NCBI GenBank assembly: GCA_902511025.1
Contig: CABXDP010000002.1
Span: forward strand, 1,466 to 65,465
DNA: 64,000 bases
Origin: an uncultured Gammaproteobacteria bacterium
Lineage (GTDB): Bacteria > Pseudomonadota > Gammaproteobacteria > PS1 > Pseudothioglobaceae
Reading direction: 5' to 3'
This document shows, in pieces, positions 39-16,499 of the stretch. The translations under genes were made by a program, and so were the position numbers. The notes under the pieces are model-generated. The model ran no database searches, was not told where the DNA came from, and saw only the letters and a list, made by a program, of their open reading frames with translations. Numbering within the stretch: the stretch's first letter is position 1; the number at the start of each line of letters is the position of its first letter.

Positions 39-2339
39 CTACATTCTAACCCTAGTCTTCTCAGGATCATAAAATGGAAATCTGACTACCTTTGCAGGTA
101 ATCGTTTTTGATGTCCATCTAATTTTCCTACCTCAACTTCAGTGCCAATCTCTGACTCTGAAATTGAAATCCTACAAAGCGCAATGTTCTTTTTAAGTAT
201 TGGCGAACGCGTTGCACTTGTAATTACTCCAATTTGTTGTTTTCCAATATACACACCATCTCCATGGAGTGCAACTTCGTTTCCATCTAATTCTAACCCA
301 ACCAAAACTCTTTGTGGAGAATTCTTGCGAAGAATTAAAGATTCTTTTCCAGAAAAATCATCCTCTTTAGTTATAAGAGGAACTGTAAATGAAATGCCTG
401 CTTCAAATGGATCTGTCTGGTCACAGAACTCATATCCAGCAAAGATTAATCCCGCTTCAATTCTCAGCATATCAAGCGCATTAAGGCCTAGAGGGCAAAT
501 TTCAAACTCTTCACCAGCCTCTTCAATTGTATCCCAAACTGCCTCACAATCTTTAGGGTGTGCGAACACTTCATAACCAAGCTCACCAGAATATCCAGTT
601 CTTGAGACCATGACAGGAATACCAAACTCACCTCCAATTCGCCCTATTGTGAAACGAAACCACTTAAGGTCCTCAATCGAAGTTTGCAGTTTTGGAGTCC
701 AAATAATTTTAGAGAGCGTCTCTCTACTCTTTGGACCCTGAACGGCAACATTATGAAGCTGGTCAGTCGAAGACTTGACTCGAACATCTAAACCTTTATC
801 GTCTGCGATTTTTCTAAGCAACTTGCCACCATCATCAGAGCCACCAATCCATCTAAAGTTATTGTCATCCATTCGGAAAAGTGTCCCATCATCAACCATG
901 CAGCCATTCTCATAGCACATCGCGGAGTAAACGACCTGTCCAATTGCAAGCTTGCGGACATCTTTTGTAATGGCATACTGCATCAGAGCTTCAGCGTCTT
1001 GACCGTACACTTCAAATTTTCTAAGAGGGGCAAGATCAATCATAACAACGCCTTCACGGCACTGCCAGTACTCTTTGATTGCGCCTAAATTTGTATACTC
1101 AAGGGGCAACCAATAGCCATTATAGTTATCAAAGTTTTTTGTTAATTTAGAAGTATTTTTATGAAAACCGGTTTCTTTAGTCATAGTCGGAATGGATTGA
1201 GGGTCAGGCCTAAAAGCCGTTGCCGATGAAAAATTATTGGACTTATCATAAATCCTAACATGAATATCAGTTGGATTCCAGCCGTTTGCAGAGGTTGTAT
1301 CATCTGGGCACGCTGATGAAACGCATACGAGGTCATCTACGGCCCTTAAAAGCACAAAATCTCCTGGCCTAGACCAAGAGACATCTGAGGTTAGAGAATG
1401 GCACTCTTCAATTGCTGTATTAAAAAATAGGTTAACCGCAGCCCAATTTCTTCTGGGTTTAACTCCATATTCAGCAAGAGACGAATTAAAATTATCTGTA
1501 CAGCTAATGTGTCCTGGAAAGCCGCGATCTTCATAATACTTAGCGTTGCATGCCAGACCGAAAGTGTCATGACGACAGACTGTATCCTGAATGACTTCCA
1601 CTAAGGGAATCGAATTCTGATTATAAAACTTGTCGTGGGTCCCTGGAGCAGGATAACTTGCAAGCATCTGCGAGCGAGTCACAGTAGGATCAAGGCATAG
1701 CTCCTCATTGTTATTTAAATCTTCAACTAAAAACGCCTGAAAATCTGAGCACTGCTGACCCTCTACATCAATAATTTGAATGTATTGACCCGCCTTTACT
1801 TTATAAGCAACCGCACTAGAATCTTTGACTCGAATCTCCTTAGAGGGTTTTGCTAGAGGCTCAGGTAGCCGATCAGAAGGATTTGTAGGGTTTTTCCTTT
1901 GAACGTTAATCAAAATTTCAGTGGGTGAGTTCTGCTGATCAACCTCCATTGGACCGCCCTTTGCATCAAACACACACAAGAGGTCATGATTAATATCAAA
2001 TGATTGCCTTGTATCTGCTGGACTTGAATCTTGAAATAACTCAGCAGTATCAATATCTTTTGGTTTAATTTTATTTGAATCAAGAATTGCTCTAAGCATT
2101 TCAGAGCAGTTATCTAGAGAAACTTTATTAGAGTTATTGCTAGAATTTGTCTTCCAATTTAACGAGGACAAGGCAGAAGTTTTTTTAGAATCAAAGGCAA
2201 GTACACTGCACTTTTGATCACCTTCAACATCAACTATTTCTACTGAATCGCCTTTTTTTAAATCAATTGAAATCGCTTCACCGCCATGAATCTGATAGGT
2301 TTCACAATCACCATCATATTTAATATTCGAAACTCTCAT
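39..2339 (-). CDS. tdm: Trimethylamine N-oxide demethylase (DUF1989 + GcvT aminomethyltransferase domains)
   Basis: N-terminal DUF1989-type region with Cys motifs RHDTFGLAC / HISCTDNF / SACPDD, and a C-terminal GcvT fold (SRTGYSGELGYE, LRIEAG, FYDPEKTR). This architecture is characteristic of Tdm, and the gene adjoins gmaS-mgsABC. Confidence 0.85.
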   Translation of the reverse strand: MRVSNIKYDGDCETYQIHGGEAISIDLKKGDSVEIVDVEGDQKCSVLAFDSKKTSALSSLNWKTNSSNNSNKVSLDNCSEMLRAILDSNKIKPKDIDTAELFQDSSPADTRQSFDINHDLLCVFDAKGGPMEVDQQNSPTEILINVQRKNPTNPSDRLPEPLAKPSKEIRVKDSSAVAYKVKAGQYIQIIDVEGQQCSDFQAFLVEDLNNNEELCLDPTVTRSQMLASYPAPGTHDKFYNQNSIPLVEVIQDTVCRHDTFGLACNAKYYEDRGFPGHISCTDNFNSSLAEYGVKPRRNWAAVNLFFNTAIEECHSLTSDVSWSRPGDFVLLRAVDDLVCVSSACPDDTTSANGWNPTDIHVRIYDKSNNFSSATAFRPDPQSIPTMTKETGFHKNTSKLTKNFDNYNGYWLPLEYTNLGAIKEYWQCREGVVMIDLAPLRKFEVYGQDAEALMQYAITKDVRKLAIGQVVYSAMCYENGCMVDDGTLFRMDDNNFRWIGGSDDGGKLLRKIADDKGLDVRVKSSTDQLHNVAVQGPKSRETLSKIIWTPKLQTSIEDLKWFRFTIGRIGGEFGIPVMVSRTGYSGELGYEVFAHPKDCEAVWDTIEEAGEEFEICPLGLNALDMLRIEAGLIFAGYEFCDQTDPFEAGISFTVPLITKEDDFSGKESLILRKNSPQRVLVGLELDGNEVALHGDGVYIGKQQIGVITSATRSPILKKNIALCRISISESEIGTEVEVGKLDGHQKRLPAKVVRFPFYDPEKTRVRM

Positions 2340-2440
2340 TAATTAAAAACCCCTTTTAATAATGTTTGAGTATACATAGAATTACTTAAAGATTATTTTG
2401 AATAAACTAATTCCCGTACTCAAAAGATTTTTTTAGTTTA

Positions 2441-2517
2441 TTCAGCACCTCAGGGGGTGAGGTGCCGAAAAACCAAGGAGAGAATTTATAGAGAGTGCCT
2501 CTTTAAAATCTCCCCTT
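2441..2517 (-). terminator. Two tandem stem-loops between the mgs operon and tdm; the first on the minus strand is a likely terminator
   Basis: Minus strand: AAGGGGAGATTTTAAAGAG-GCACT-CTCTATAAATTCTCTCCTT followed by GGTTTTT, then TTCGGCACCTCA-CCCCC-TGAGGTGCTGAA. Confidence 0.55.
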
Positions 2518-2535
2518 TTAATTCACTTACCCAAA

Positions 2536-2922
2536 TTAAAATTTACGGTAAGCGTTATTTAGATCAACCATTGGATGATTTTCTGACATTTGGAACTTGA
2601 TTAAAAGCTCACGCGCAATCATGTCTCTCTCTTGCTGATTATCAGGCAGTTTAATGGTGTCAGGAATCGTCACCCAGCCGTTGATGTTTCTATCAAAAAC
2701 AGCCGCTTGATCACCCTCATATCCCATATGAATATCCTCTAACCAGTTCAGATCTTTCCATCCCATTTTGTCTATATACTCCTGTAAGAAAGGGGTGATA
2801 AACTTAAGGTCAGGAACGAGATTTACGTCATATCGATAACCAATATGCTGACCAATGTCTTTTTCGCGATCAGTTCCTAGGCCATCATCTCCAACAACAA
2901 ACTCTTCTTCTTTATTGCTCAT
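2536..2922 (-). CDS. Hypothetical 128-aa acidic protein, last gene of the gmaS-mgsABC operon
   Basis: Start reassigned to the ATG at 2922 (MSNKEEEF), which follows an AGGAGA RBS just after the mgsC stop. The upstream extension in the ORF track overlaps mgsC. Confidence 0.8.
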   Translation of the reverse strand: MSNKEEEFVVGDDGLGTDREKDIGQHIGYRYDVNLVPDLKFITPFLQEYIDKMGWKDLNWLEDIHMGYEGDQAAVFDRNINGWVTIPDTIKLPDNQQERDMIARELLIKFQMSENHPMVDLNNAYRKF

Positions 2923-2936
2923 AATTTCTCCTATCC

Positions 2937-4274
2937 TTAAAAGCGTGTCAAATCTGGACGGCCAACGGTGTGCTGAGAACCTGCAATAGGGACTTGAGCA
3001 CATGCTGAGGCTTCCATCGTTAAAGCAGCAAGATCTTCTGGCTCTAGTGAGTGAATATTCGTTTTACCACAAGCACGCGCCATCATCTGGCACTCAATGG
3101 CTAAAGTATGTAAAAAGTTGTAAACTCTCTCTGAAGCTGCATCAGGGTCTAGTCTCTGTCTAAGCACTGGGTCTTGAGTTGCAACACCCACTGGGCAGCG
3201 ACCTGTATGACAGTGATAACACTCGCCCGCGTTGACGCCCATTTCATTAGGGTAATCCGCTTCAGGTATATCTCTGTTACAGTTAAGCGCCATAAGAGAA
3301 GCGTGTCCAATCGCAACCGCATCTGCACCAAGTGCGACCGCTTTAGCGACGTCACCACCATTTCTAATACCACCAGCATAGACCAGTGAAATTCTTCCTG
3401 TCATGCCAACATCATCGATTGCTCTTCTTGCTTGACGAATTGCAGCGATCCCAGGAACACCTGTCTCCTCAGTAGCGATATGAGGTCCAGCAGCTGTACC
3501 ACCTTCCATTCCATCGATATAAATACTGTCACAACCCGTTTTTGCAGCCATACGAACGTCGTCGTAGACACGAGCAGCACCCAGCTTCAATTGGATAGGA
3601 ATTTGTCCATCCGTTGCTTCACGAATCTCTTCAATTTTAAGAGCCAAATCATCTGGACCTAACCAGTCTGGGTGTCTAGCAGGCGATCTTTGGTCAATAC
3701 CCGCTGGAAGCGATCTCATCTCAGCAACCTGGTCTGTTACTTTTTGTCCCATCAAGTGTCCACCCAGCCCCACTTTACAACCCTGTCCAATAAAGAACTC
3801 AACACTGTCAGCTAGACGTAAATGCTGAGGGTTGAAGCCATAGCGTGACTGAATACACTGATAAAACCACTTACTTGAGTAGCGTCTCTCATCAGGAATC
3901 ATTCCTCCCTCACCAGAGCAAGTCGCTGTTCCAGCCATAGTTGCGCCCCGAGCCAGAGCTGTTTTAGCTTCATAACTCAGCGCTCCAAAACTCATACCGG
4001 TAATGTAAATGGGTATGTCGAGCTCTAGTGGTCTAGGTGCTTCAGGACCGATAATGGTTTTTGTTAAACACTTTTCTCTGTAGCCTTCAATAACAAAGCG
4101 CGTCAGAGTACCTGGCATAAAAGTCAAGTCGTCCCATGTTGGAATCTTTTTGAAAAGAGAGAAACCTCTCATTCGGTAACGTCCCAAATCAGATTTAATG
4201 TGGATGTCATCCATCACACCTTTAGGAAAGATAAAACTTTTACCTAGTCTGTTTTTTTCATCTATATCACTCAT
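2937..4274 (-). CDS. mgsC: N-methylglutamate synthase subunit C (FMN-binding glutamate synthase family)
   Basis: GMSFGALS, SGEGG, GIDQRSP.RHPDW, CYHCHTGRCPVGVATQDP Fe-S motif; operon with mgsA/B and gmaS. Confidence 0.85.
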   Translation of the reverse strand: MSDIDEKNRLGKSFIFPKGVMDDIHIKSDLGRYRMRGFSLFKKIPTWDDLTFMPGTLTRFVIEGYREKCLTKTIIGPEAPRPLELDIPIYITGMSFGALSYEAKTALARGATMAGTATCSGEGGMIPDERRYSSKWFYQCIQSRYGFNPQHLRLADSVEFFIGQGCKVGLGGHLMGQKVTDQVAEMRSLPAGIDQRSPARHPDWLGPDDLALKIEEIREATDGQIPIQLKLGAARVYDDVRMAAKTGCDSIYIDGMEGGTAAGPHIATEETGVPGIAAIRQARRAIDDVGMTGRISLVYAGGIRNGGDVAKAVALGADAVAIGHASLMALNCNRDIPEADYPNEMGVNAGECYHCHTGRCPVGVATQDPVLRQRLDPDAASERVYNFLHTLAIECQMMARACGKTNIHSLEPEDLAALTMEASACAQVPIAGSQHTVGRPDLTRF

Positions 4275-4307
4275 AATTTTTCCTTTATTTAATTTGTTAA
4301 AGTCCGA

Positions 4308-5150
4308 TTAAAGAATAAGTTTTTTCTCTGCAGGCTCAAGATTATCGTAGTTCCATAGTGTCTTACCAGAAACATACTTTTGCATCTTTTCTACGCCATT
4401 TGGAGCTTTCATATCATAATTACCAAGCTTTTCAGTTAAGTAGCGTACGTCTAGCTCTGTCATCTCACCAGGAACACAGTCCACTCCAAGCTCTTCAACT
4501 TCACCGCCCACATAGATCGTGCCGTCATACATTGAATCACCTAAGTTCATACCTGCATCTCCAAGCACAATCATTCGACCACGCTGCATCATAAAGCCTG
4601 AGAAAGCGCCCGTTTTACCACCAACAATAATGGTTCCGCCTTTTTGGTCAATACCTGTTCGAGCACCAACACTCCCTTTACATACGAGGTCTCCACCACG
4701 AATTGCAGCACCAAACGTTGAACCGGCATTACCATCAATAACGACCGTTCCAGCCATCATGTTTTCAGCGCATGACCAGCCTACTCGTCCCTTGATATGA
4801 ACATTAGGCCCATCAATCAGGCCACAACCAAAGTAACCTAAGCTGTCTGAAAAAGTTAAATTAAGACGATTCAAAATACCTACGCCAACACCATGCCTTG
4901 ACATTGGATTGTCAACGGTAATATTACCGATACCGCTTTCCATTAATGCTCTGATCTCACGATTAATTTCTCTTGGCGTCATATCTAAAGCATCAATCGT
5001 AGCGCTCTTGTTAGTGTCTACTTCAAACGAATGAAAATATGTCAGGTTTGCACTTTCATCAATCGAGAAAAATTTCTGCTGCGTTCTTCCTTTGAGCTGC
5101 TCCTGATGGAGCCCCATCTCATAAGACGAATCTTTTTTTAGTTCTGCCAT
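4308..5150 (-). CDS. mgsB: N-methylglutamate synthase subunit B (GXGXG beta-helix domain)
   Basis: Repeated GxxGxxxG motifs (AENMMAGTVVIDGNAG, GFMMQRGRMIVLGDAG); lies between mgsA and mgsC. Confidence 0.85.
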   Translation of the reverse strand: MAELKKDSSYEMGLHQEQLKGRTQQKFFSIDESANLTYFHSFEVDTNKSATIDALDMTPREINREIRALMESGIGNITVDNPMSRHGVGVGILNRLNLTFSDSLGYFGCGLIDGPNVHIKGRVGWSCAENMMAGTVVIDGNAGSTFGAAIRGGDLVCKGSVGARTGIDQKGGTIIVGGKTGAFSGFMMQRGRMIVLGDAGMNLGDSMYDGTIYVGGEVEELGVDCVPGEMTELDVRYLTEKLGNYDMKAPNGVEKMQKYVSGKTLWNYDNLEPAEKKLIL

Positions 5151-6076
5151 ACTTTTACCTCTCCGTGATAAGGGTCAAATGTTTCAATTCGGTGATCAAA
5201 TAATGTCCTGATTGCGACCTCCTCTGAAGCCAAAGCAATCATATCATCACCCTCGTATACAACCATTGGTTTGGCGGCCATAACATCCTTAGCCATACCC
5301 AGTTGATCTTTTGTCGCTACTAGATATGTAAATACACCATCTAAATATTCAACAGAGTCTTTCATAGCTGACTCTAAATCTTTTCCCTGGCTCATTCTTT
5401 CTGCAATATAAACTGCTATGAGTTCTGAGTCGCAGTTCGAAGAAAAGCGATGACCTTTAAGTTCTAGTGCGCGTCTGTTGGTCCAGTAGTTCGTTAGCTG
5501 GCCGTTGTGAACTACAGCAACGTCACTAAATGGGTATGCCCAGTAAGGGTGAGCAGAACGAATATCGACATCTGACTCGGTTGCCATCCTTGTGTGACCA
5601 ATTCCATGTGTCCCATTAAATTGATTCAGTCCATACTGCTCAGAAACAACTGCAGCATCGCCAAGGTCCTTGATTAATTCGAGTGAGTTACCAATAGATA
5701 GAATCTCAACACCCTCTATGTCTTCAACGAAGTCAGCTAACTTTTTCATATCGCCTGAGAATTGAATCTCATAGCGATGCGAGTACTCAGTCGCGCTTTC
5801 TTTCTTGACAATCTTAGCGCCCAGATCATCCATTCTAGAATTCACAGCAGCAACCCTATCTTCAATTGCCGCATGTATATCAAAACTTCCCTCAAGATCA
5901 GCTGCCTCAGCGACCTTGAACCTTACTACATTATTGCCATTATCTTCGCCATACATAGCGTACCCAGTTGAATCTGGCCCCCTATGCTTCAAAGCCTGCA
6001 ACATGGCTGTCATTTGCTCACCAATGTTGACATCTTTGCCGGCATTCTTATGAATAATTCCTGCTATTCCGCACAT
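5138..6076 (-). CDS. mgsA: N-methylglutamate synthase subunit A (class II glutamine amidotransferase)
   Basis: MCGIAG N-terminal nucleophile, HRGPDSTG, GHTRMATES, VHNGQL, DSE. Confidence 0.85.
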   Translation of the reverse strand: MCGIAGIIHKNAGKDVNIGEQMTAMLQALKHRGPDSTGYAMYGEDNGNNVVRFKVAEAADLEGSFDIHAAIEDRVAAVNSRMDDLGAKIVKKESATEYSHRYEIQFSGDMKKLADFVEDIEGVEILSIGNSLELIKDLGDAAVVSEQYGLNQFNGTHGIGHTRMATESDVDIRSAHPYWAYPFSDVAVVHNGQLTNYWTNRRALELKGHRFSSNCDSELIAVYIAERMSQGKDLESAMKDSVEYLDGVFTYLVATKDQLGMAKDVMAAKPMVVYEGDDMIALASEEVAIRTLFDHRIETFDPYHGEVKVWQN

Positions 6077-6102
6077 AAAATAATCTCCCTTTCCCTGAAA
6101 AT

Positions 6103-6122
6103 TGCCCGCCGTTAGGCGGGCA
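6103..6122 (-). terminator. Intercistronic GC-rich hairpin between gmaS and mgsA (mRNA stabiliser or partial terminator)
   Basis: TGCCCGCC-gtta-GGCGGGCA perfect 8-bp stem; only a short T-run follows on the minus strand. Confidence 0.5.
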
Positions 6123-6149
6123 CTCTAAATTAACTTAAACGAAACTAGC

Positions 6150-7628
6150 CTAAGGCAAGCAGTCCAAATAAGTTTCAATATCCCAATCTGTAACCGTGTG
6201 ATTGAAACGCTCCCACTCATCAGTCTTGTAATGGTGGTAAACCTTATACATCTCATCTGGCATAGCCGATTTGATGACCTCATCATTTGCAAGCTCAGTC
6301 ATTGCATCACCAAGCGACATGGGTAACTTCTTAACATCTTTACCAGCCTCCATCGCTTCGTAAATGTTTCTCTCTTCAGCTTCACCTGCATCGATATTGT
6401 TATCAATTCCATCACCCATCGCTTTTAATAGAGCGGATCCCATTAGGTATGGATTAACCATAGAGTCTACAGAGCGATACTCAAAGCGGCCTGGAGCCGA
6501 AACGCGAAGCGCACAAGTTCTATTTTGGTAACCCCAGTCAGCAAAGATTGGAGCCCAAAAACCTGTATCCCATAATCTTCTGTATGAGTTCACTGTTGAA
6601 GAACCAATAGATGTCAGTGCTGGTAAATGCTTAATCACACCGCCGATTGAATTCAGACCAATTGGACCCGGCATTTTTTCATCAATGGATGGATCCGGCA
6701 TGAATGTATTTTCACCACCCTCTTTATAAGTAAAGACACCTGGCATTCCAGGCAGCTCTCCATCGCCTGTAGCAATTTCTGGATGAAAAACATCTTTACC
6801 ACCCTTCCACAAAGACATGTTATGGTGACAGCCCGAAGCCGAAACGCCCATAAATGGTTTACTCATAAAGCAAGCAATCAATCCAAACTCACGAGCAACC
6901 TGAGCACAAATTTGACGATAAGTCGTTAAACGATCCGCGTTCCTTAGAACGTCGTCGAACTGAGTATTAAGCTCTAACTGGCCCGGTGCATCTTCGTGGT
7001 CGCCCTGAATAATATCCAGACCCATCTGCTCAGAGTACTCAATAACCTTCATGAAAACTGGACGAAGCTCTTCAAATTGATCGATATGGTAACAGTTCGG
7101 CTTTGTTACTCCGCCATTTGTACCGCCATCTTCACCACGCTTAAGCCACATCATTTCGGGCTCAGTACCGCAGCGCATATCTAGACCATACTGGTCTTGG
7201 AATTCTTTGTGCAGTCTGTAGAGATTTCCTCTGCAATCAGAGGTTAATGCTGCGCCCGGGTTATCGCGCTCTTCACGGTTTCTGTAAAGTCTACAAAAAA
7301 CCCTAGCAACTCTCTTGTCCCATGGAAGTTGGCAGAACGTATCTGGGTCAGGGATACCGACCAGTTCTGATGATTCTGGACCATAACCGATGTAGCTTCC
7401 GTGGCGATCAACGAATAAGTTTGCTGTTGAGCCATAAACCAATTGAAATCCTTTCTCAGCTAATCTTTCCCAGTGTCGAGCAGGAATACCTTTTCCTACA
7501 ATACGACCGGTAACTGATACAAATTGATAATATACATATGTAACTCCTAAAGCATCGATTTTAGCTTTTACTTCTTTTACAAGTTTATCGCGTCCAGGTT
7601 CATTAACGTGTTGTTCTAAATCTGTCAT
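6150..7628 (-). CDS. gmaS: Gamma-glutamylmethylamide synthetase (glutamine synthetase family)
   Basis: GS fold (GTEPE, DHEDAPGQLE, FMSKPF, SGCHHNMS, NRTCALR, EYRSVD) with KPNCY and FWAP (Trp in place of the GS Glu flap) as in GmaS; first gene of the mgsABC operon. Confidence 0.8.
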   Translation of the reverse strand: MTDLEQHVNEPGRDKLVKEVKAKIDALGVTYVYYQFVSVTGRIVGKGIPARHWERLAEKGFQLVYGSTANLFVDRHGSYIGYGPESSELVGIPDPDTFCQLPWDKRVARVFCRLYRNREERDNPGAALTSDCRGNLYRLHKEFQDQYGLDMRCGTEPEMMWLKRGEDGGTNGGVTKPNCYHIDQFEELRPVFMKVIEYSEQMGLDIIQGDHEDAPGQLELNTQFDDVLRNADRLTTYRQICAQVAREFGLIACFMSKPFMGVSASGCHHNMSLWKGGKDVFHPEIATGDGELPGMPGVFTYKEGGENTFMPDPSIDEKMPGPIGLNSIGGVIKHLPALTSIGSSTVNSYRRLWDTGFWAPIFADWGYQNRTCALRVSAPGRFEYRSVDSMVNPYLMGSALLKAMGDGIDNNIDAGEAEERNIYEAMEAGKDVKKLPMSLGDAMTELANDEVIKSAMPDEMYKVYHHYKTDEWERFNHTVTDWDIETYLDCLP

Positions 7629-7815
7629 TTAATCTCTCCGAAAAAATAAAAAAAATCTTTTTAAGATTTGCCCCCTAGTAGACTTTATTTAGATTCGTAA
7701 TTAATTAACCCAAATAAAAACCAGACAATTCACTGATATATAACTGATAAATACCTCCAAACATGATTCAATTTTATGACCCTAAAAAAGTAGGGTTTCA
7801 GCAAATTAATATCGG

Positions 7816-7845
7816 AGTATACTCCTATTGATATTCCATTGTCAA
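7816..7845 (-). promoter_or_regulatory. Sigma70-type promoter for the gmaS-mgs operon
   Basis: Minus strand TTGACA-N18-TATACT, about 190 nt upstream of the gmaS start. Confidence 0.55.
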
Positions 7846-7992
7846 GAAATTTTTTTTATTTTAAAGAAATTAAATAAAGCCTTGATTTTCTTCTATTTTT
7901 TGTCAAAAAACAAAAAAAAAAAAACTGGAAAGTTTTTATCTTTAGGAAGATTTTTTTTGACTATAAATCGACTAGATAGTTAATGATTTCTA

Positions 7993-8643
7993 TCAATCAG
8001 ATGCATTAGAAGAGATAATCGTCAGAAACTGGCACTCATCACTGATGATCTTTTTTGGGCCATGCGGAGTGTCAGAATCAAAATACAGCGAGTCCCCTTT
8101 TTTGAAGTGGTAGACCTTGTTCCCATAAAAATAATCCATCTGCCCCTTGAGCATGTAGATGAACTCTACTCCCTTATGCTGAAATTCAGGAAACTCATAG
8201 TCTCTTGACGTTATTGTAATTAAACACGGCTCAACCTTTAAAGATCCACCAACCGTATGCCCTAATAATTGATAGTGTCGACTCTCATCTGAGCCTGCTC
8301 TCTCTATCGTTAATCCTTTACCTGACTTGATGAAAGTCGGCTCAACATCTTTATCATGCTGCTTAAATAAGGAGGTGATAGAGATATTGAGCGCGTGACA
8401 GATCGACTGTATTGTTTTAAGTGATGCACTAATCTGGCCGTTCTCTATTTTTGAGAGCATACTGGCTGAGAGTAGCGACTGTTTTGATAGCTGCTGAAGA
8501 GTAACGCCAGCATTCTTTCTTGCCATACGCACCTGCTTGCCTATAGAGGCCTCTAACTGCTTATCACTTCCAAAGCTTGGAAGATTTTTATTGATAATGG
8601 AAACGCCCTTCTCTTTAGGCATTGGTTTTTTTGTAGCTGCCAC
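7993..8643 (-). CDS. XRE-family transcriptional regulator with C-terminal cupin domain
   Basis: HTH_3 (TLQQLS..SASMLSKIENGQISASL) plus cupin (FQHKGVEFIYML..GDSLYFDSDTPH); upstream of gmaS. Confidence 0.9.
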   Translation of the reverse strand: MAATKKPMPKEKGVSIINKNLPSFGSDKQLEASIGKQVRMARKNAGVTLQQLSKQSLLSASMLSKIENGQISASLKTIQSICHALNISITSLFKQHDKDVEPTFIKSGKGLTIERAGSDESRHYQLLGHTVGGSLKVEPCLITITSRDYEFPEFQHKGVEFIYMLKGQMDYFYGNKVYHFKKGDSLYFDSDTPHGPKKIISDECQFLTIISSNASD

Positions 8644-8653
8644 AATACAATAA

Positions 8654-8688
8654 TTTACTTAGAATAAAAAAAATTATACTACAAGGAA
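8654..8688. promoter_or_regulatory. Putative tandem operator (TTMCT-N3-AGGAA) upstream of the XRE regulator
   Basis: tttacttagaataaaaaaaattatactacaaggaa aligns without gaps to the amt upstream site at 16541-16575. Confidence 0.45.
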
Positions 8689-8735
8689 AATTACTAGATT
8701 GAAGAATTGAACATTAACGAATGAGAAATATTGAA

Positions 8736-9752
8736 TTAAACTCTCAAGCGTCTACTTCTTCTCTGCTTAATGGGCTTGGAATCGTCGCCCTGAAAGATTA
8801 ATTTTGATCCCTCAGACATAAAACCAACCCTGTCTTCAATTTCTTGGAGTGTTGGCGGCGGCGAAACACTATGCCGATCCATTGCTTTTCGCATAGCCCT
8901 GACATGATCAAAACTGGTTCCGCAACAACCCCCAATAATCTTGGCGCCAGAGTTCATGGCAATCTGCACATACCGCGACATGAGCTCTTCTGTTCCTGAG
9001 TACATAATACTGCCATTCACAAACTCTGGAATGCCGCAGTTGGCTTTTGAAATGACAATCGTTCCAGGGTCAACATTTTTTGAAATATCATTAATGGTTG
9101 CCAACAGATCTGGCGCTCCAATTCCGCAGTTAGCTCCAAACCCACTCAGATTTAAATCCTTAGATCTTTTGGCAAGGTTGGAGGGGGTAATACCCATCAT
9201 CGTTTTTCCTGCAGTATCAAAACTCATTGTTGCGCAGACTGGAAGCCCAATATCCTTGACCGCTTCCATTGCAGCTTCTAACTCTTCCATAGCGTACATG
9301 GTCTCAAGCCAGAGCACATCAACGCCTCCCTCTGCAAGACCCTCCGCTTGAGCTTTAAAGGCATCCGCTGCCTCCTTCGGAGTCATCAGCCCATGAGGCT
9401 CAATCATCTCACCTGTAGGTCCCATTGCTCCTGCAACAATGACCTGTCTGTCAGCCTGATCCGCTACCTCTCTGGCAATCTGTCCTGCTGCTTTGTTGAG
9501 TTCAAAAACCCTCGTTTCAAGATTATGTAATTTGAGTCTGAAAGATGTACCACCAAAACTATTGGTTAAGAATAAATCAGATCCAGCATCAACAAACCCT
9601 TGATGTAAAGCGCGTATTCGATCTTTGTGATCTACATTCCATGGCTCCGGAGGATCACCAGTCTCGAGACCCATCCCAAACAAGTTCGTTCCAGTTGCCC
9701 CATCAGCCAGAATGTGGCTTTTTTCCTCAAGGATTTTTAAAAAATTATTCAT
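8736..9752 (-). CDS. bmt: Betaine-homocysteine S-methyltransferase / homocysteine S-methyltransferase domain protein
   Basis: LADGATGTNLF, TNSFGG, GANCG, IIGGCCGT Zn motifs; stand-alone domain with a basic RRSRR tail. Confidence 0.8.
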   Translation of the reverse strand: MNNFLKILEEKSHILADGATGTNLFGMGLETGDPPEPWNVDHKDRIRALHQGFVDAGSDLFLTNSFGGTSFRLKLHNLETRVFELNKAAGQIAREVADQADRQVIVAGAMGPTGEMIEPHGLMTPKEAADAFKAQAEGLAEGGVDVLWLETMYAMEELEAAMEAVKDIGLPVCATMSFDTAGKTMMGITPSNLAKRSKDLNLSGFGANCGIGAPDLLATINDISKNVDPGTIVISKANCGIPEFVNGSIMYSGTEELMSRYVQIAMNSGAKIIGGCCGTSFDHVRAMRKAMDRHSVSPPPTLQEIEDRVGFMSEGSKLIFQGDDSKPIKQRRSRRLRV

Positions 9753-14034: not shown

Positions 14035-14826
14035 ATGAGCAGTTTAAAAGAAGATTACGAAAAGAATGGTTTTTATTCGCCGATCTCTGTCATCGATACA
14101 TCTCTTGCACGAGAGTATCGTAACATCCTTGAGAAAACTGAATCAAACATTGAGTTACTAAACTATCGCTACAAGATTCATACTGCGCTTGATTTCGCTT
14201 ACCAACTAGCAATCAATGAAAATCTCTTGGATAAGATTGAGTCTCTCATAGGACCCAACATTCTGCTTTATAACACTTCATTTGTCATCAAGGAGCCGCA
14301 CTCTAAAACACACATCAGTTGGCATCAAGATTTGACCTATTGGGGTTTTAACGCCGAGAAACAGGTGGCTGCTTGGGTCGCCCTGTCTGATGCAACTGAG
14401 GAGAATGGGTGCATGCACATGATTCCTGGAAGCCACAAAAATGGAAAAATTCCTCATAGAACTACGGTTGACATACACAACCTTCTTCATCATGGCCAAA
14501 CGATTGAAAATGTCTCTGAAAGTGATTCGGTAAGCGTCCCATTAAAGGCTGGAGAGGCCTCTCTTCATCACGGCTGGACAATGCACACCTCGTACCCAAA
14601 TGAAAGCAGTAATCGAAGAATTGGATTAACCATAAATTACATTTCTACGGACATGTATCAGACTCAAACTGATAATGACTCAGCCATGCTAGTGAGGGGT
14701 GTTGATGAATATAAGCATTTTGCAATGGACGAGCCTCCGACCCAGGAGTTTGATGAGGCTGCCTGGATTAAGTTACAACAAAAAGAGGCGCTCATTCATC
14801 AAACTTACAACAAAATGAAAACATAA
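14035..14826 (+). CDS. Phytanoyl-CoA dioxygenase (PhyH) family Fe(II)/2-oxoglutarate dioxygenase
   Basis: SWHQD..W, ENGCMHMIPGSH, H.S.PN.S..RR motifs. Confidence 0.9.
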   Translation: MSSLKEDYEKNGFYSPISVIDTSLAREYRNILEKTESNIELLNYRYKIHTALDFAYQLAINENLLDKIESLIGPNILLYNTSFVIKEPHSKTHISWHQDLTYWGFNAEKQVAAWVALSDATEENGCMHMIPGSHKNGKIPHRTTVDIHNLLHHGQTIENVSESDSVSVPLKAGEASLHHGWTMHTSYPNESSNRRIGLTINYISTDMYQTQTDNDSAMLVRGVDEYKHFAMDEPPTQEFDEAAWIKLQQKEALIHQTYNKMKT

Positions 14827-14840
14827 CAATCTCATTCAAC

Positions 14841-14882
14841 AAAAAAAGGGCAGTATTTACATACCGCCCTTTTCGTTTTTTT
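14841..14882. terminator. Bidirectional rho-independent terminator
   Basis: A7-GGGCAGTAT-ttac-ATACCGCCC-TTTT between convergent genes. Confidence 0.8.
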
Positions 14883-14897
14883 ACTTTTTACAGATTT

Positions 14898-15077
14898 TTA
14901 CTTGTAGTGATCCTGCTCGTCAGAGTTGCCTTTAACTAAGACTCCTACTAACATTACCGTAGCAATCACTGTCCACCAGCCAGCGGCTGATGAACCAGCA
15001 CCGATATACATGCCCATGTCCATCCAAGCACCATCAGCATCCATAAGCTCTGTAAAAGATTCAGCAAAATATCCCAT
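14898..15077 (-). CDS. Unannotated 59-aa single-pass membrane protein co-transcribed with amt
   Basis: MGYFAESFTELMDADGAWMDMGMYIGAGSSAAGWWTVIATVMLVGVLVKGNSDEQDHYK*; AAGGAG RBS; starts 18 nt after the amt stop and ends just before the terminator. Confidence 0.8.
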   Translation of the reverse strand: MGYFAESFTELMDADGAWMDMGMYIGAGSSAAGWWTVIATVMLVGVLVKGNSDEQDHYK

Positions 15078-15095
15078 ATTAATTCTCCTTAAAAA

Positions 15096-16499
15096 TTAAG
15101 ATTCAGATTCAGGGCTCGCCATACCTTGAGGGTATGCCTGTGCAGGAACTTTCACTGCATCAAGTCCTCTTTCTTGAACTGCGTCTGGGATACGTAACAT
15201 GCCAGCTTTGTTCACTATCCAAGACACAATGTATCCTGGAACAAAACCTAGTAAGAACATGACAACTGCACCGACAATTTGGCCAAATAGGCTAATTGCA
15301 ACAGTATCTTCTGGAGCAAAAGCGCCAAGTCCTGGAACACCAGAACCCAGAATACCAAGCATTACAACGCCAAATAGTCCAATCGTTCCGTGAACCGTAA
15401 CACAACCAACAGCATCATCGATACCAAGACCCTCTAGCCAGTCCGCACACGGCTTAAGAATAATACCAGCAAGGATAGAAACAGCTATAACCGTTGAACC
15501 AAAGTACACATCAAGACCCGAGGCTACAGAAATAATACCTGCTAGACAGCCAGACATCATCCAGAAAGGATCTCTAGTCATAACCCAAGCACCAATAATA
15601 CCGCCAGCAGCAGCTAGAGGAACGTTAAATGCTAGTGCCGAAAGTGTCATTGGAGTACCATAAATGGTAGTCGCTCTGTCACTATACCAACTCCAACCTT
15701 CTCCAGGCAGAATGATACAAGCCATTAGGAATCCGAAGAATCCAACAATAATCAGCATTAAGCCAGTTACTGTAAGTGGCATGTTGTGACCTGCCAGATG
15801 ATTCGCAGAGCCGTCAGCGTTGAATTTTCCTACACGTGGGCCCAAGTTCAATAGAACACCCAGCGCGAAGAATCCAGCGACAGCGTGCACAAGACCAGCA
15901 GCACCAAAGTCGTGATAACCAAACTCAGTGACTAACCATCCGTCAGCGTGCCATCCCCATGCCGCTGCAATACCCCATGCGGCGGTACCTAGCACAACCG
16001 CACAGATTACAAAACCTACGGTTTGTATTCTCTCGATTAGTGCACCAGAGGCAATCGACGCAGTTGTTGCCGCGAATAGAGCAAAAGCACCCCAGAATAC
16101 GCCTGACGCATTGTCACCCATATTTGGTCCCATGTACTGAGCAGAATCGCCCCAGGCCCATGCGATAGCATTTGCATACTCTAGACCTGATATCTCCATA
16201 TAGCCGGCACCAGCACTAAAGTCTAATGGCCAAGTTGGCAGGGCAAAGTAGAACCACCAACCAAATAGGTACCATGCAGCAATTGTAAACGCGAACGCGA
16301 GTAAATTTTTAACACCCGATGACAGTACATTCTGCAAGCGAGTAGCACCCATCTCATAGAGAAGGAAGCCAGCATGAATGAGAACCATCAAAGGAATTGT
16401 TACGTAATAGTACGCCTCAGCAAACATCCTGTTTGTGACCTCGGCAGCACCTTTTATAGCGGCTACTTCAGCCGTTAAAGCTAATATTTGATCTTCCAA
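15096..16499 (-). CDS. amt: Amt/Mep/Rh-family transporter, atypical (possible methylammonium transporter)
   Basis: SGALIERI, YHDFGAAGLVH, LGPRVGKF, IDDAVGCVTVHG (twin His retained); TTG start after AAGGAG. Confidence 0.9.
   Translation of the reverse strand: MEDQILALTAEVAAIKGAAEVTNRMFAEAYYYVTIPLMVLIHAGFLLYEMGATRLQNVLSSGVKNLLAFAFTIAAWYLFGWWFYFALPTWPLDFSAGAGYMEISGLEYANAIAWAWGDSAQYMGPNMGDNASGVFWGAFALFAATTASIASGALIERIQTVGFVICAVVLGTAAWGIAAAWGWHADGWLVTEFGYHDFGAAGLVHAVAGFFALGVLLNLGPRVGKFNADGSANHLAGHNMPLTVTGLMLIIVGFFGFLMACIILPGEGWSWYSDRATTIYGTPMTLSALAFNVPLAAAGGIIGAWVMTRDPFWMMSGCLAGIISVASGLDVYFGSTVIAVSILAGIILKPCADWLEGLGIDDAVGCVTVHGTIGLFGVVMLGILGSGVPGLGAFAPEDTVAISLFGQIVGAVVMFLLGFVPGYIVSWIVNKAGMLRIPDAVQERGLDAVKVPAQAYPQGMASPESES

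Follow-up and report, generated by a model that had tools for sequence, protein, structure and literature searches.

In AmtB, the C-terminal region couples the subunits and is the site at which GlnK acts. GlnK, a soluble PII protein, is the only bacterial partner of an Amt/Mep/Rh protein that we found described; no description of an integral-membrane partner of any member of this superfamily was found in the literature, and neither 'accessory' nor 'small protein' occurs in a 2024 review of these proteins (PMC10794816). Two related cases have been described. The archaeal protein sP36 of Methanosarcina mazei is reported as a soluble cytoplasmic protein that moves to the membrane on nitrogen upshift and mediates the binding of GlnK1 to AmtB1 (PMC10714827), and human RhCG carries an additional helix, TM0, at the edge of the subunit interface (PMC10794816). 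Other transporters do have small single-pass partners (KdpF of KdpFABC, AcrZ of AcrAB-TolC), and such a partner for an Amt is, as far as we found, apparently new. We analysed a 64,000-nucleotide stretch of DNA (hereafter the window; contig CABXDP010000002.1, positions 1,466 to 65,465) from an uncultured gammaproteobacterium of the genus Candidatus Pseudothioglobus (Pseudothioglobaceae, SUP05 clade), whose own assembly amounts to 0.85 Mb and is 66% complete. It contains a small open reading frame (ORF) directly behind a divergent ammonium-transporter gene, amt. In our judgement the product of this ORF is probably an undescribed stoichiometric accessory subunit, physically associated with a GlnK-independent clade of Amt proteins from methylated-amine gene clusters of marine bacteria.

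The small ORF (14898-15077, minus strand, ATG at 15075-15077) encodes 59 residues and belongs to the class called type A below. It lies 18 nt behind the stop codon (15096-15098) of amt (15096-16499, minus strand), a gene of 467 codons with a TTG start. It has its own Shine-Dalgarno (SD) sequence, AAGGAG (15085-15090, minus strand), 7 nt 5' of the ATG, and is followed by the intrinsic terminator of the amt-small operon (approximately 14841-14877, minus strand), a GC-rich hairpin with U7 (dG -20.5 kcal/mol, z = -6.15 relative to shuffled sequences). Residues 1-31 form an acidic, aromatic N-segment that includes the motif W..D.GMYIG.G, with YIGAGS at 24-29. A single transmembrane (TM) helix spans residues ~32-49, with a strongly hydrophobic stretch of 17 residues (mean Kyte-Doolittle 2.4), and the last 11 residues, KGNSDEQDHYK, form a tail predicted to be cytoplasmic, in which G50 and E54 are invariant and Y58 is near-invariant. 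Type A proteins have on average about 0 Lys and Arg residues on the N-terminal side and about 3.4 on the C-terminal side, and from this charge pattern around the helix an N-out/C-in topology is predicted. The protein thus has the features of small single-pass transporter subunits, being shorter than 100 residues, with one TM helix, and adjacent to and co-oriented with a transporter gene. The original prediction, made from the letters of the window, had listed the ORF, its AAGGAG ribosome-binding site, its place between amt and the terminator, the N-terminus, YIGAGS, the helix and the charged tail, and all of these are present where it placed them. It had further called the protein undescribed, which agrees with our results, as neither a Pfam or NCBIfam family above noise (types A, B and C; type A scanned at E up to 1) nor a description in the literature was found; look-alikes in the ESM Atlas belonged to unnamed clusters only and were uninformative. 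It had also called the ORF hidden, and this does not hold for public data, in which several pipelines annotate homologues as 'hypothetical protein'.

A six-frame search of 60 related genomes detected the small ORF in 27 of the 36 other genomes of the genus and nothing convincing in 24 further families of its class. Among the genus genomes that lack a match, four (G004, G010, G031 and G036) also lack this Amt, and in two (G001 and G021) the contig is cut at amt. In all 28 genus loci the ORF starts 11-21 nt 3' of the orthologous amt, and AGGAG, the ATG and the same terminator hairpin are all kept around it; AGGAG or GGAG precedes the ATG in nearly all of the 28 genus loci and 78 further related loci. 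Across the genus loci, the identity of the small protein drops from 100% to ~39%, that of Amt to 72% at the lowest. Conservation of the ORF behind homologous amt genes and purifying selection on it were among the tests that had been named for the prediction, and it passed these two: the ORF is present in 28/28 genus loci and in 78 of the 80 further loci described below, and its median pairwise dN/dS is 0.22, compared with 0.11 for amt.

The ORF is short, and an ORF of 57 residues overlaps it on the opposite strand (14926-15099, plus strand). It could therefore be argued that it is no gene at all, being either a chance ORF in AT-rich DNA or the shadow of the antisense ORF as the real feature. 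Conservation speaks against this: over the genus and further loci the SD and ATG are retained while the identity falls to ~30-40%, the dN/dS is as given above, and the motifs are conserved at the amino-acid level. All 106 copies are open in the frame of the small ORF; none of the other five frames, antisense ones included, is open in more than 35 of them. The non-gene reading is effectively already refuted and retains a negligible probability; the small ORF is a real gene under purifying selection.

The region was also found on contigs from marine metatranscriptome libraries of three studies. A 777-nt contig (run X5) extends from position 14878, just past the stop codon of the small ORF, to 15654 inside amt; the region is present in RNA libraries, contiguous with amt. 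In runs X3 and X5, RNA-contig coverage vanishes beyond the operon; this was considered as a mark of transcript ends and discarded, contig data being unusable for this purpose. In run X1, one metatranscriptome contig aligns on either side of a skipped stretch of 151 nt inside the small ORF (14894-15044). A splicing-like event was rejected as an explanation on the same ground; most likely the contig comes from a diverged strain whose small ORF falls under the alignment threshold.

A profile built from the genus copies was searched against 1.84 billion representative proteins, without restriction of length. It gave only 29 matches, all of 32-80 residues, and the small protein is therefore not a domain of any larger protein in that set. 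No fused Amt-small form occurs among these 29 matches, and two word-index searches were limited to proteins of similar length. Diverged forms among the 29 follow the pattern MGFPY..W..VDGAMFMG.G-TM-G(N/Q)..E; they are deposited as 'hypothetical protein' from metagenome-assembled genomes (MAGs) of Roseobacter, Paracoccaceae and Rhodobacterales, and their contigs carry a gene for an Amt of ~460 residues immediately upstream. A scan with the Amt alignment, one genome per species, yielded at least 576 matching stretches, of which the best 80 loci were examined. In 78 of these 80 the small ORF lies 11-53 nt 3' of amt with its own SD, and the two without it are contigs that end ~100-120 nt past amt. 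These best 80 loci come from Pseudothioglobus, other Gammaproteobacteria and many genera of the Roseobacter group, and include the cultured Phaeobacter, Planktotalea, Poseidonocella, Algirhabdus and Roseobacter weihaiensis. The window Amt is 65-72% identical to its orthologues in the Roseobacter group, which are alphaproteobacterial, and on the Amt tree the copies from Gammaproteobacteria branch among those from Alphaproteobacteria, a pattern that suggests a transfer of the amt-small pair between classes. In a 400-genome sample of the phylum, the small-protein profile matched one genome beyond the window's own (G321). Throughout the searched sets, the small ORF is strictly coupled to one Amt clade and never occurs without that Amt.

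Two database entries have unusual sources. In a protein of 73 residues (P0078), residues ~1-28 of the small protein are followed by sequence very similar to the C-terminal end of the window's SucB, probably because the metagenome contig is chimeric. A copy 81% identical (P0031) was submitted as a hypothetical protein from an 'Anaerolineales bacterium' MAG; its contig probably belongs to Pseudothioglobus and was binned wrongly.

With the Amt as a query, the 400-genome sample gave nine further relatives at 39-54% identity (one group at 48-54%, another at 39-46%), and each of the nine is followed directly by a small single-pass ORF of another kind. Three types can be told apart. Type A (52-64 residues, one hydrophobic stretch) is that of Pseudothioglobus and the Roseobacter group. 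Type B (54-59 residues, 24 clusters) has the pattern MNTAPI.TWEGAEAYFTFADKP-TM-HE and is found in Thalassospira, Methylobrevis and Roseibium. Type C (71-77 residues, at least 218 clusters) reads MSTIGY.SWAVDLA..A.YPFQG-TM-..RE followed by a longer basic tail, and its hosts include Leisingera, Roseovarius, Defluviimonas and others. Over the three types the gap from amt to the small ORF is 11-84 nt, always on the same strand, and all have no Lys or Arg and about three Asp or Glu before the helix, with 3-7 Lys or Arg after it, a pattern that predicts N-out/C-in insertion for each type. Profiles of types A and B align over the TM helix and the tail (hhalign probability 87%, E 3.8e-6). The comparisons of A with C and of B with C were not significant (probability 7.5% and 0.6%), so that homology of type C is argued from position and architecture only. 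In an IQ-TREE phylogeny the Amt proteins of types A, B and C form one clade, and a long branch (100/100) lies between them and the AmtB paralogues of the genus that are linked to glnK; the Amt proteins of type B are monophyletic (99/98), as are those of type C (98/98), and the type of small ORF therefore tracks the Amt phylogeny. In conclusion, the small ORF and this Amt clade co-occur and co-diversify.

The same clade is distinguished by the genes that it lacks. No PII gene occurs in any of the 118 loci of the methylamine-type Amt clade (types A, B and C; ~1.2 Mb in total), and a downstream hydrophobic small ORF is present wherever the sequence continues past amt. By contrast, the canonical amt loci of the genus have a PII gene in 4/4 cases and no downstream hydrophobic small ORF in the loci checked, and loci of the TIGR03644 marine subtype have a PII gene in 15/16 and such an ORF in 0/16. 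As the prediction had noted, amtB is usually paired with glnK. In the examined loci, PII and the small ORF are mutually exclusive as Amt partner genes, according to the Amt clade. The window's own assembly, 66% complete as it is, contains no PII gene, and this Amt is its only one. The earlier statement that glnK is absent is correct for this locus, as for the clade, and fails for the lineage: in complete genomes of the genus, a canonical glnK-amtB pair is found at another site (G007:C1:415647-417194, L033/L037, and G020:C1:604092-605642, L029/L039), and some of them have a second PII gene too.

The association of the two proteins was modelled with an Amt monomer and the small protein, using two alignments of our own with 37 rows each. 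The complex prediction scored 0.79, and the best of three controls 0.00; the same mark is reached by 58 of 80 solved complexes and by 2 of 110 mismatched pairs, counts that apply only roughly to alignments of our own such as these. At least 88% of the contacts are common to the runs, with a predicted local distance difference test (pLDDT) value of at least 76 for the partner. The predicted interface comprises residues 11, 18-24, 27-28, 30, 32-33, 36, 39-40, 43, 47, 50-51, 54 and 57-58 of the small protein and residues 71, 74-75, 78, 115-129, 159-165 and 434-450 of Amt. In the model, the small helix (32-47) is placed on Amt TM2 (71, 74-75 and 78) and the start of TM4 (161-165), the periplasmic segment (11, 18-30) on the long periplasmic loop 115-129, and the tail (G50, N51, E54, H57 and Y58) on Gln159-Gly162 and the C-terminal region 434-450. 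Among the predicted contacts, those of the invariant G50 and E54 are some of the best defined, which fits the conservation pattern. We know of no solved complex of an Amt with a single-pass partner, and memorisation by the model is therefore unlikely. The model thus supports binding of the small protein to Amt. The prediction had proposed such modelling with the Amt trimer, and the support for binding (0.79 versus 0.00) was obtained with the monomer.

The window Amt is a true Amt/Mep/Rh protein by its Pfam match and pore signature, and it is neither a canonical AmtB nor of the TIGR03644 type. It matches PF00909 (E 8.1e-51) over residues 36-456, the whole 11-helix core, and remains far below the curated cut-offs of the specific families (179 versus 343 bits for TIGR00836, 150 versus 514 for TIGR03644 and 42 versus 657 for AmtB). 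Its AlphaFold2 (AF2) secondary structure consists of 11 long helices and an N-terminal extension. The nearest solved structures are remote (6EU6 and 8QJ3/8QPF, E ~1e-22), and E. coli AmtB was not among the solved-structure matches within E 1e-10. For the E. coli AmtB numbering, a signal-peptide offset of 22 residues was used. The pore residues of AmtB are kept in types A, B and C (H168/H318 as H205/H370, F107/F215 as F142/F257), as are D160 (D197) and W148 (W183). Changes common to the clade relative to E. coli AmtB are S219 to Cys261, W212 to Phe254, and T273 to Ala or Ser; the first two occur in types A, B and C and not in the glnK-linked paralogues, and affect Ser219 (S1 site) and Trp212, which lie where AmtB recruits its substrate on the periplasmic side and at the entrance of the pore. 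The clade also has inserted periplasmic loops relative to E. coli AmtB.

A further trait of this Amt is a conserved amphipathic N-terminal extension before TM1 (residues 1-25, approximately 16425-16499; pattern EEQIAEL.A.VAAL), which lacks a signal peptide and, in the model, runs on into TM1 as a single helix. The longer N-terminus of fungal Mep2 makes contact with the adjacent subunit (PMC10794816).

The assignment to a methylamine-type Amt subfamily, proposed in the original prediction, is supported by the clusters of methylated-amine catabolism in which the clade sits. In G321 and in most Roseobacter-group loci the gene order is tmm-gmaS-mgsCBA <-> amt-small-dmmDABC; in Roseobacters the amt-small pair forms the middle of a trimethylamine/dimethylamine/monomethylamine (TMA/DMA/MMA) catabolic cluster, and the contexts of types B and C are similar. 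Published descriptions of these clusters label the transporter gene 'amtB/amt, ammonium transporter' and leave the small gene unmentioned (PMC5520151; PMC7574528), and a 2026 study on cluster regulation mentions neither the transporter nor the small gene (PMC13390433). Literature searches turned up no work on the function of this Amt clade or the small ORF.

In Pseudothioglobus, the immediate neighbours of the pair are genes for a PhyH dioxygenase and a peptide deformylase. The PhyH-family 2-oxoglutarate (2OG)-Fe(II) dioxygenase gene of the window (14035-14826, plus strand) is convergent with the amt-small operon, and the two apparently have one bidirectional terminator in common, since an A-run 5' of the hairpin enables it to terminate the PhyH gene too. 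A block of one-carbon (C1) and methylated-amine genes lies 5-15 kb from amt-small (39-9752, minus strand). It consists of a tdm or Tdm-like gene (DUF1989 and GCV_T, 39-2339), an mgsCBA-like trio (Glu_synthase, GXGXG and GATase, 2937-6076), a glutamine synthetase (GS)-like gene whose product is 33% identical to GmaS (6150-7628), a gene for a regulator with an XRE helix-turn-helix (HTH) and a cupin domain (7993-8643), and a gene for a homocysteine S-methyltransferase of the betaine-homocysteine methyltransferase-like kind (8736-9752), all on the minus strand. The genus has gmaS and tmm, the products being 62% and 66% identical to the Roseobacter enzymes. PF11927 (DmmC) was not found in five genus genomes, a result of little weight as the control genomes gave nothing either.

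On the accessory-subunit reading, which we prefer, the small subunit would in effect be a 12th transmembrane helix supplied in trans to Amt. The small gene would be expressed as part of one operon with amt, from its own SD and with the operon terminator behind it, and the peptide would insert N-out/C-in. Short acidic N-tails of this kind typically insert via YidC. The helix would pack on Amt TM2 and the start of TM4, the acidic aromatic periplasmic segment would rest on the clade-specific long loop 115-129 beside the substrate vestibule, and the tail, through Gly50, Glu54 and Tyr58, would clamp two parts of Amt, the cytoplasmic loop between TM3 and TM4 (Gln159-Gly162) and the C-terminal region (434-450). 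The subunit would thereby stabilise or activate the transporter, and it may shape the recruitment of (methyl)ammonium. Any effect of the small protein on transport, and the substrate of the Amt itself, are what we infer from this arrangement.

Several points weigh against this reading. RNA-library contigs prove neither one transcript nor translation. Binding has the standing of a model's confidence only, and since the complex was modelled on a monomer, the predicted site could reflect no more than an oligomerisation surface left exposed in the model; the contacted helix TM2 may be at or near the trimer interface of Amt. By analogy with TM0 of RhCG, the small helix could alternatively sit at the edge of that interface. 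Neither PMC10794816 nor PMC6338640 was found to name the helices of the AmtB trimer interface; functionally required phosphatidylglycerol (PG) lipids are reported to bind near the subunit interfaces of AmtB (PMC6338640). The AF2 model of Amt alone is mediocre (pLDDT 65) and was used for helix boundaries only. Measured by dN/dS, the rate of evolution of the small protein is about double that of Amt. Homology of type C to A or B could not be demonstrated, so the notion of one ancient subunit is only partly supported. Finally, methylated ammonium as the substrate is suggested by gene context.

A stronger form of the proposal is that the methylated-amine-cluster Amt clade is an obligate two-component transporter, in which the periplasmic segment completes the vestibule and the Gly-x3-Glu tail confers independence from GlnK by locking the C-terminal region. 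The vestibule, with its S219C and W212F changes and once completed, would capture methylated ammonium at low seawater concentrations, and the tail would hold the C-terminal region in its active state, so that no GlnK would be needed. We regard this stronger form as possible, and as a tentative proposal that is more probably wrong than right.

The other readings differ in whether the small protein is a structural partner at all. It could have a job of its own in methylated-amine metabolism, as a sensor peptide or with another membrane partner, and be co-transcribed with amt without binding it. Adjacency alone is no proof of binding, the small protein diverges faster than Amt, and the cytoplasmic tail of type C, ~30 residues long, could touch something else. 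However, the place directly after amt (11-84 nt) has been kept in three Amt subclades from two classes of Proteobacteria, also where the catabolic neighbours differ or are missing, as in Pseudothioglobus; the small ORF was never found without this Amt, and the complex prediction passes while the controls remain at 0.00. We consider an independent role unlikely. The original prediction had cast the small protein as a partner in place of GlnK, either a subunit or a regulator, and a regulator that switches Amt by nitrogen status would agree with a clade that is never glnK-linked while other Amt types of the same genomes are, with predicted tail contacts on the cytoplasmic loop and the C-terminal region, where AmtB regulation operates, and with an archaeal precedent, the reported control of AmtB1 by sP36 (PMC10714827). 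Yet the cytoplasmic part amounts to ~10 residues in types A and B and holds no domain to sense 2-oxoglutarate, ATP or glutamine; the Pfam scan of the small protein gave no match to PF00543, the genus keeps a GlnK elsewhere that could still act on this Amt in trans, and a membrane peptide that is constitutive, co-transcribed and provided with an SD of its own resembles a structural subunit more than a switch. Because no sensing domain is conceivable and the lineage retains GlnK, a replacement of GlnK appears quite improbable. Of the two roles proposed originally, that of accessory subunit is thus the better supported, and that of GlnK, with no PF00543 match and a tail of 11 residues, is not borne out.

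Few membrane channels have been studied as much as the Amt/Mep/Rh proteins, and a clade with a constant single-pass partner and never a glnK would add a new architecture to this family. If the two-component proposal were true, the small protein would be the first integral-membrane accessory subunit of the superfamily, and the uptake system that has long been missing from the marine TMA/DMA/MMA pathway would be identified. Such pathways are of importance to the nitrogen cycle of the sea and to the amines that form aerosols. Methylamine-transport tests that express this Amt alone may fail should the subunit be required, and the small gene should be included.

Among the described systems, GlnK is likewise encoded by a dedicated partner gene in the amt operon, and the predicted contacts of the small protein include the cytoplasmic face and the C-terminal region of Amt; GlnK, however, is a soluble trimeric sensor of ~112 residues (PF00543), whereas the small protein has 59 residues, a TM helix, and neither a sensing domain nor a PF00543 match. 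The protein sP36 is likewise small (61 versus 59 residues) and is proposed to act on an ammonium transporter (PMC10714827). It is set apart by its description: sP36 is soluble and mediates the binding of GlnK1 to AmtB1, whereas the protein described here, with its hydrophobic stretch and N-out/C-in charge bias, is predicted to be integral to the membrane, and its Amt clade has no glnK in its loci as a partner gene. TM0, the 12th helix of human RhCG, possibly embodies the same idea in cis, as an N-terminal part of the same polypeptide, whereas here the helix is the product of a separate gene downstream of amt. Comparable too are KdpF and AcrZ. The gene kdpF is encoded in the operon of its transporter, as is the small gene here, and acrZ is not known to be. 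Like the small protein, KdpF (KdpFABC) and AcrZ (AcrAB-TolC; PMC7267776) are shorter than 100 residues, with one TM helix and no enzymatic domain, and the small protein is predicted by the model to lie on the lipid-facing transmembrane surface of its transporter, as proteins of this kind do. It differs from them in its partner family, Amt/Mep/Rh, in the absence of a sequence relationship (no Pfam or NCBIfam match) and in that its binding is a prediction, and it has in addition a conserved periplasmic motif and a cytoplasmic Gly-x3-Glu tail.
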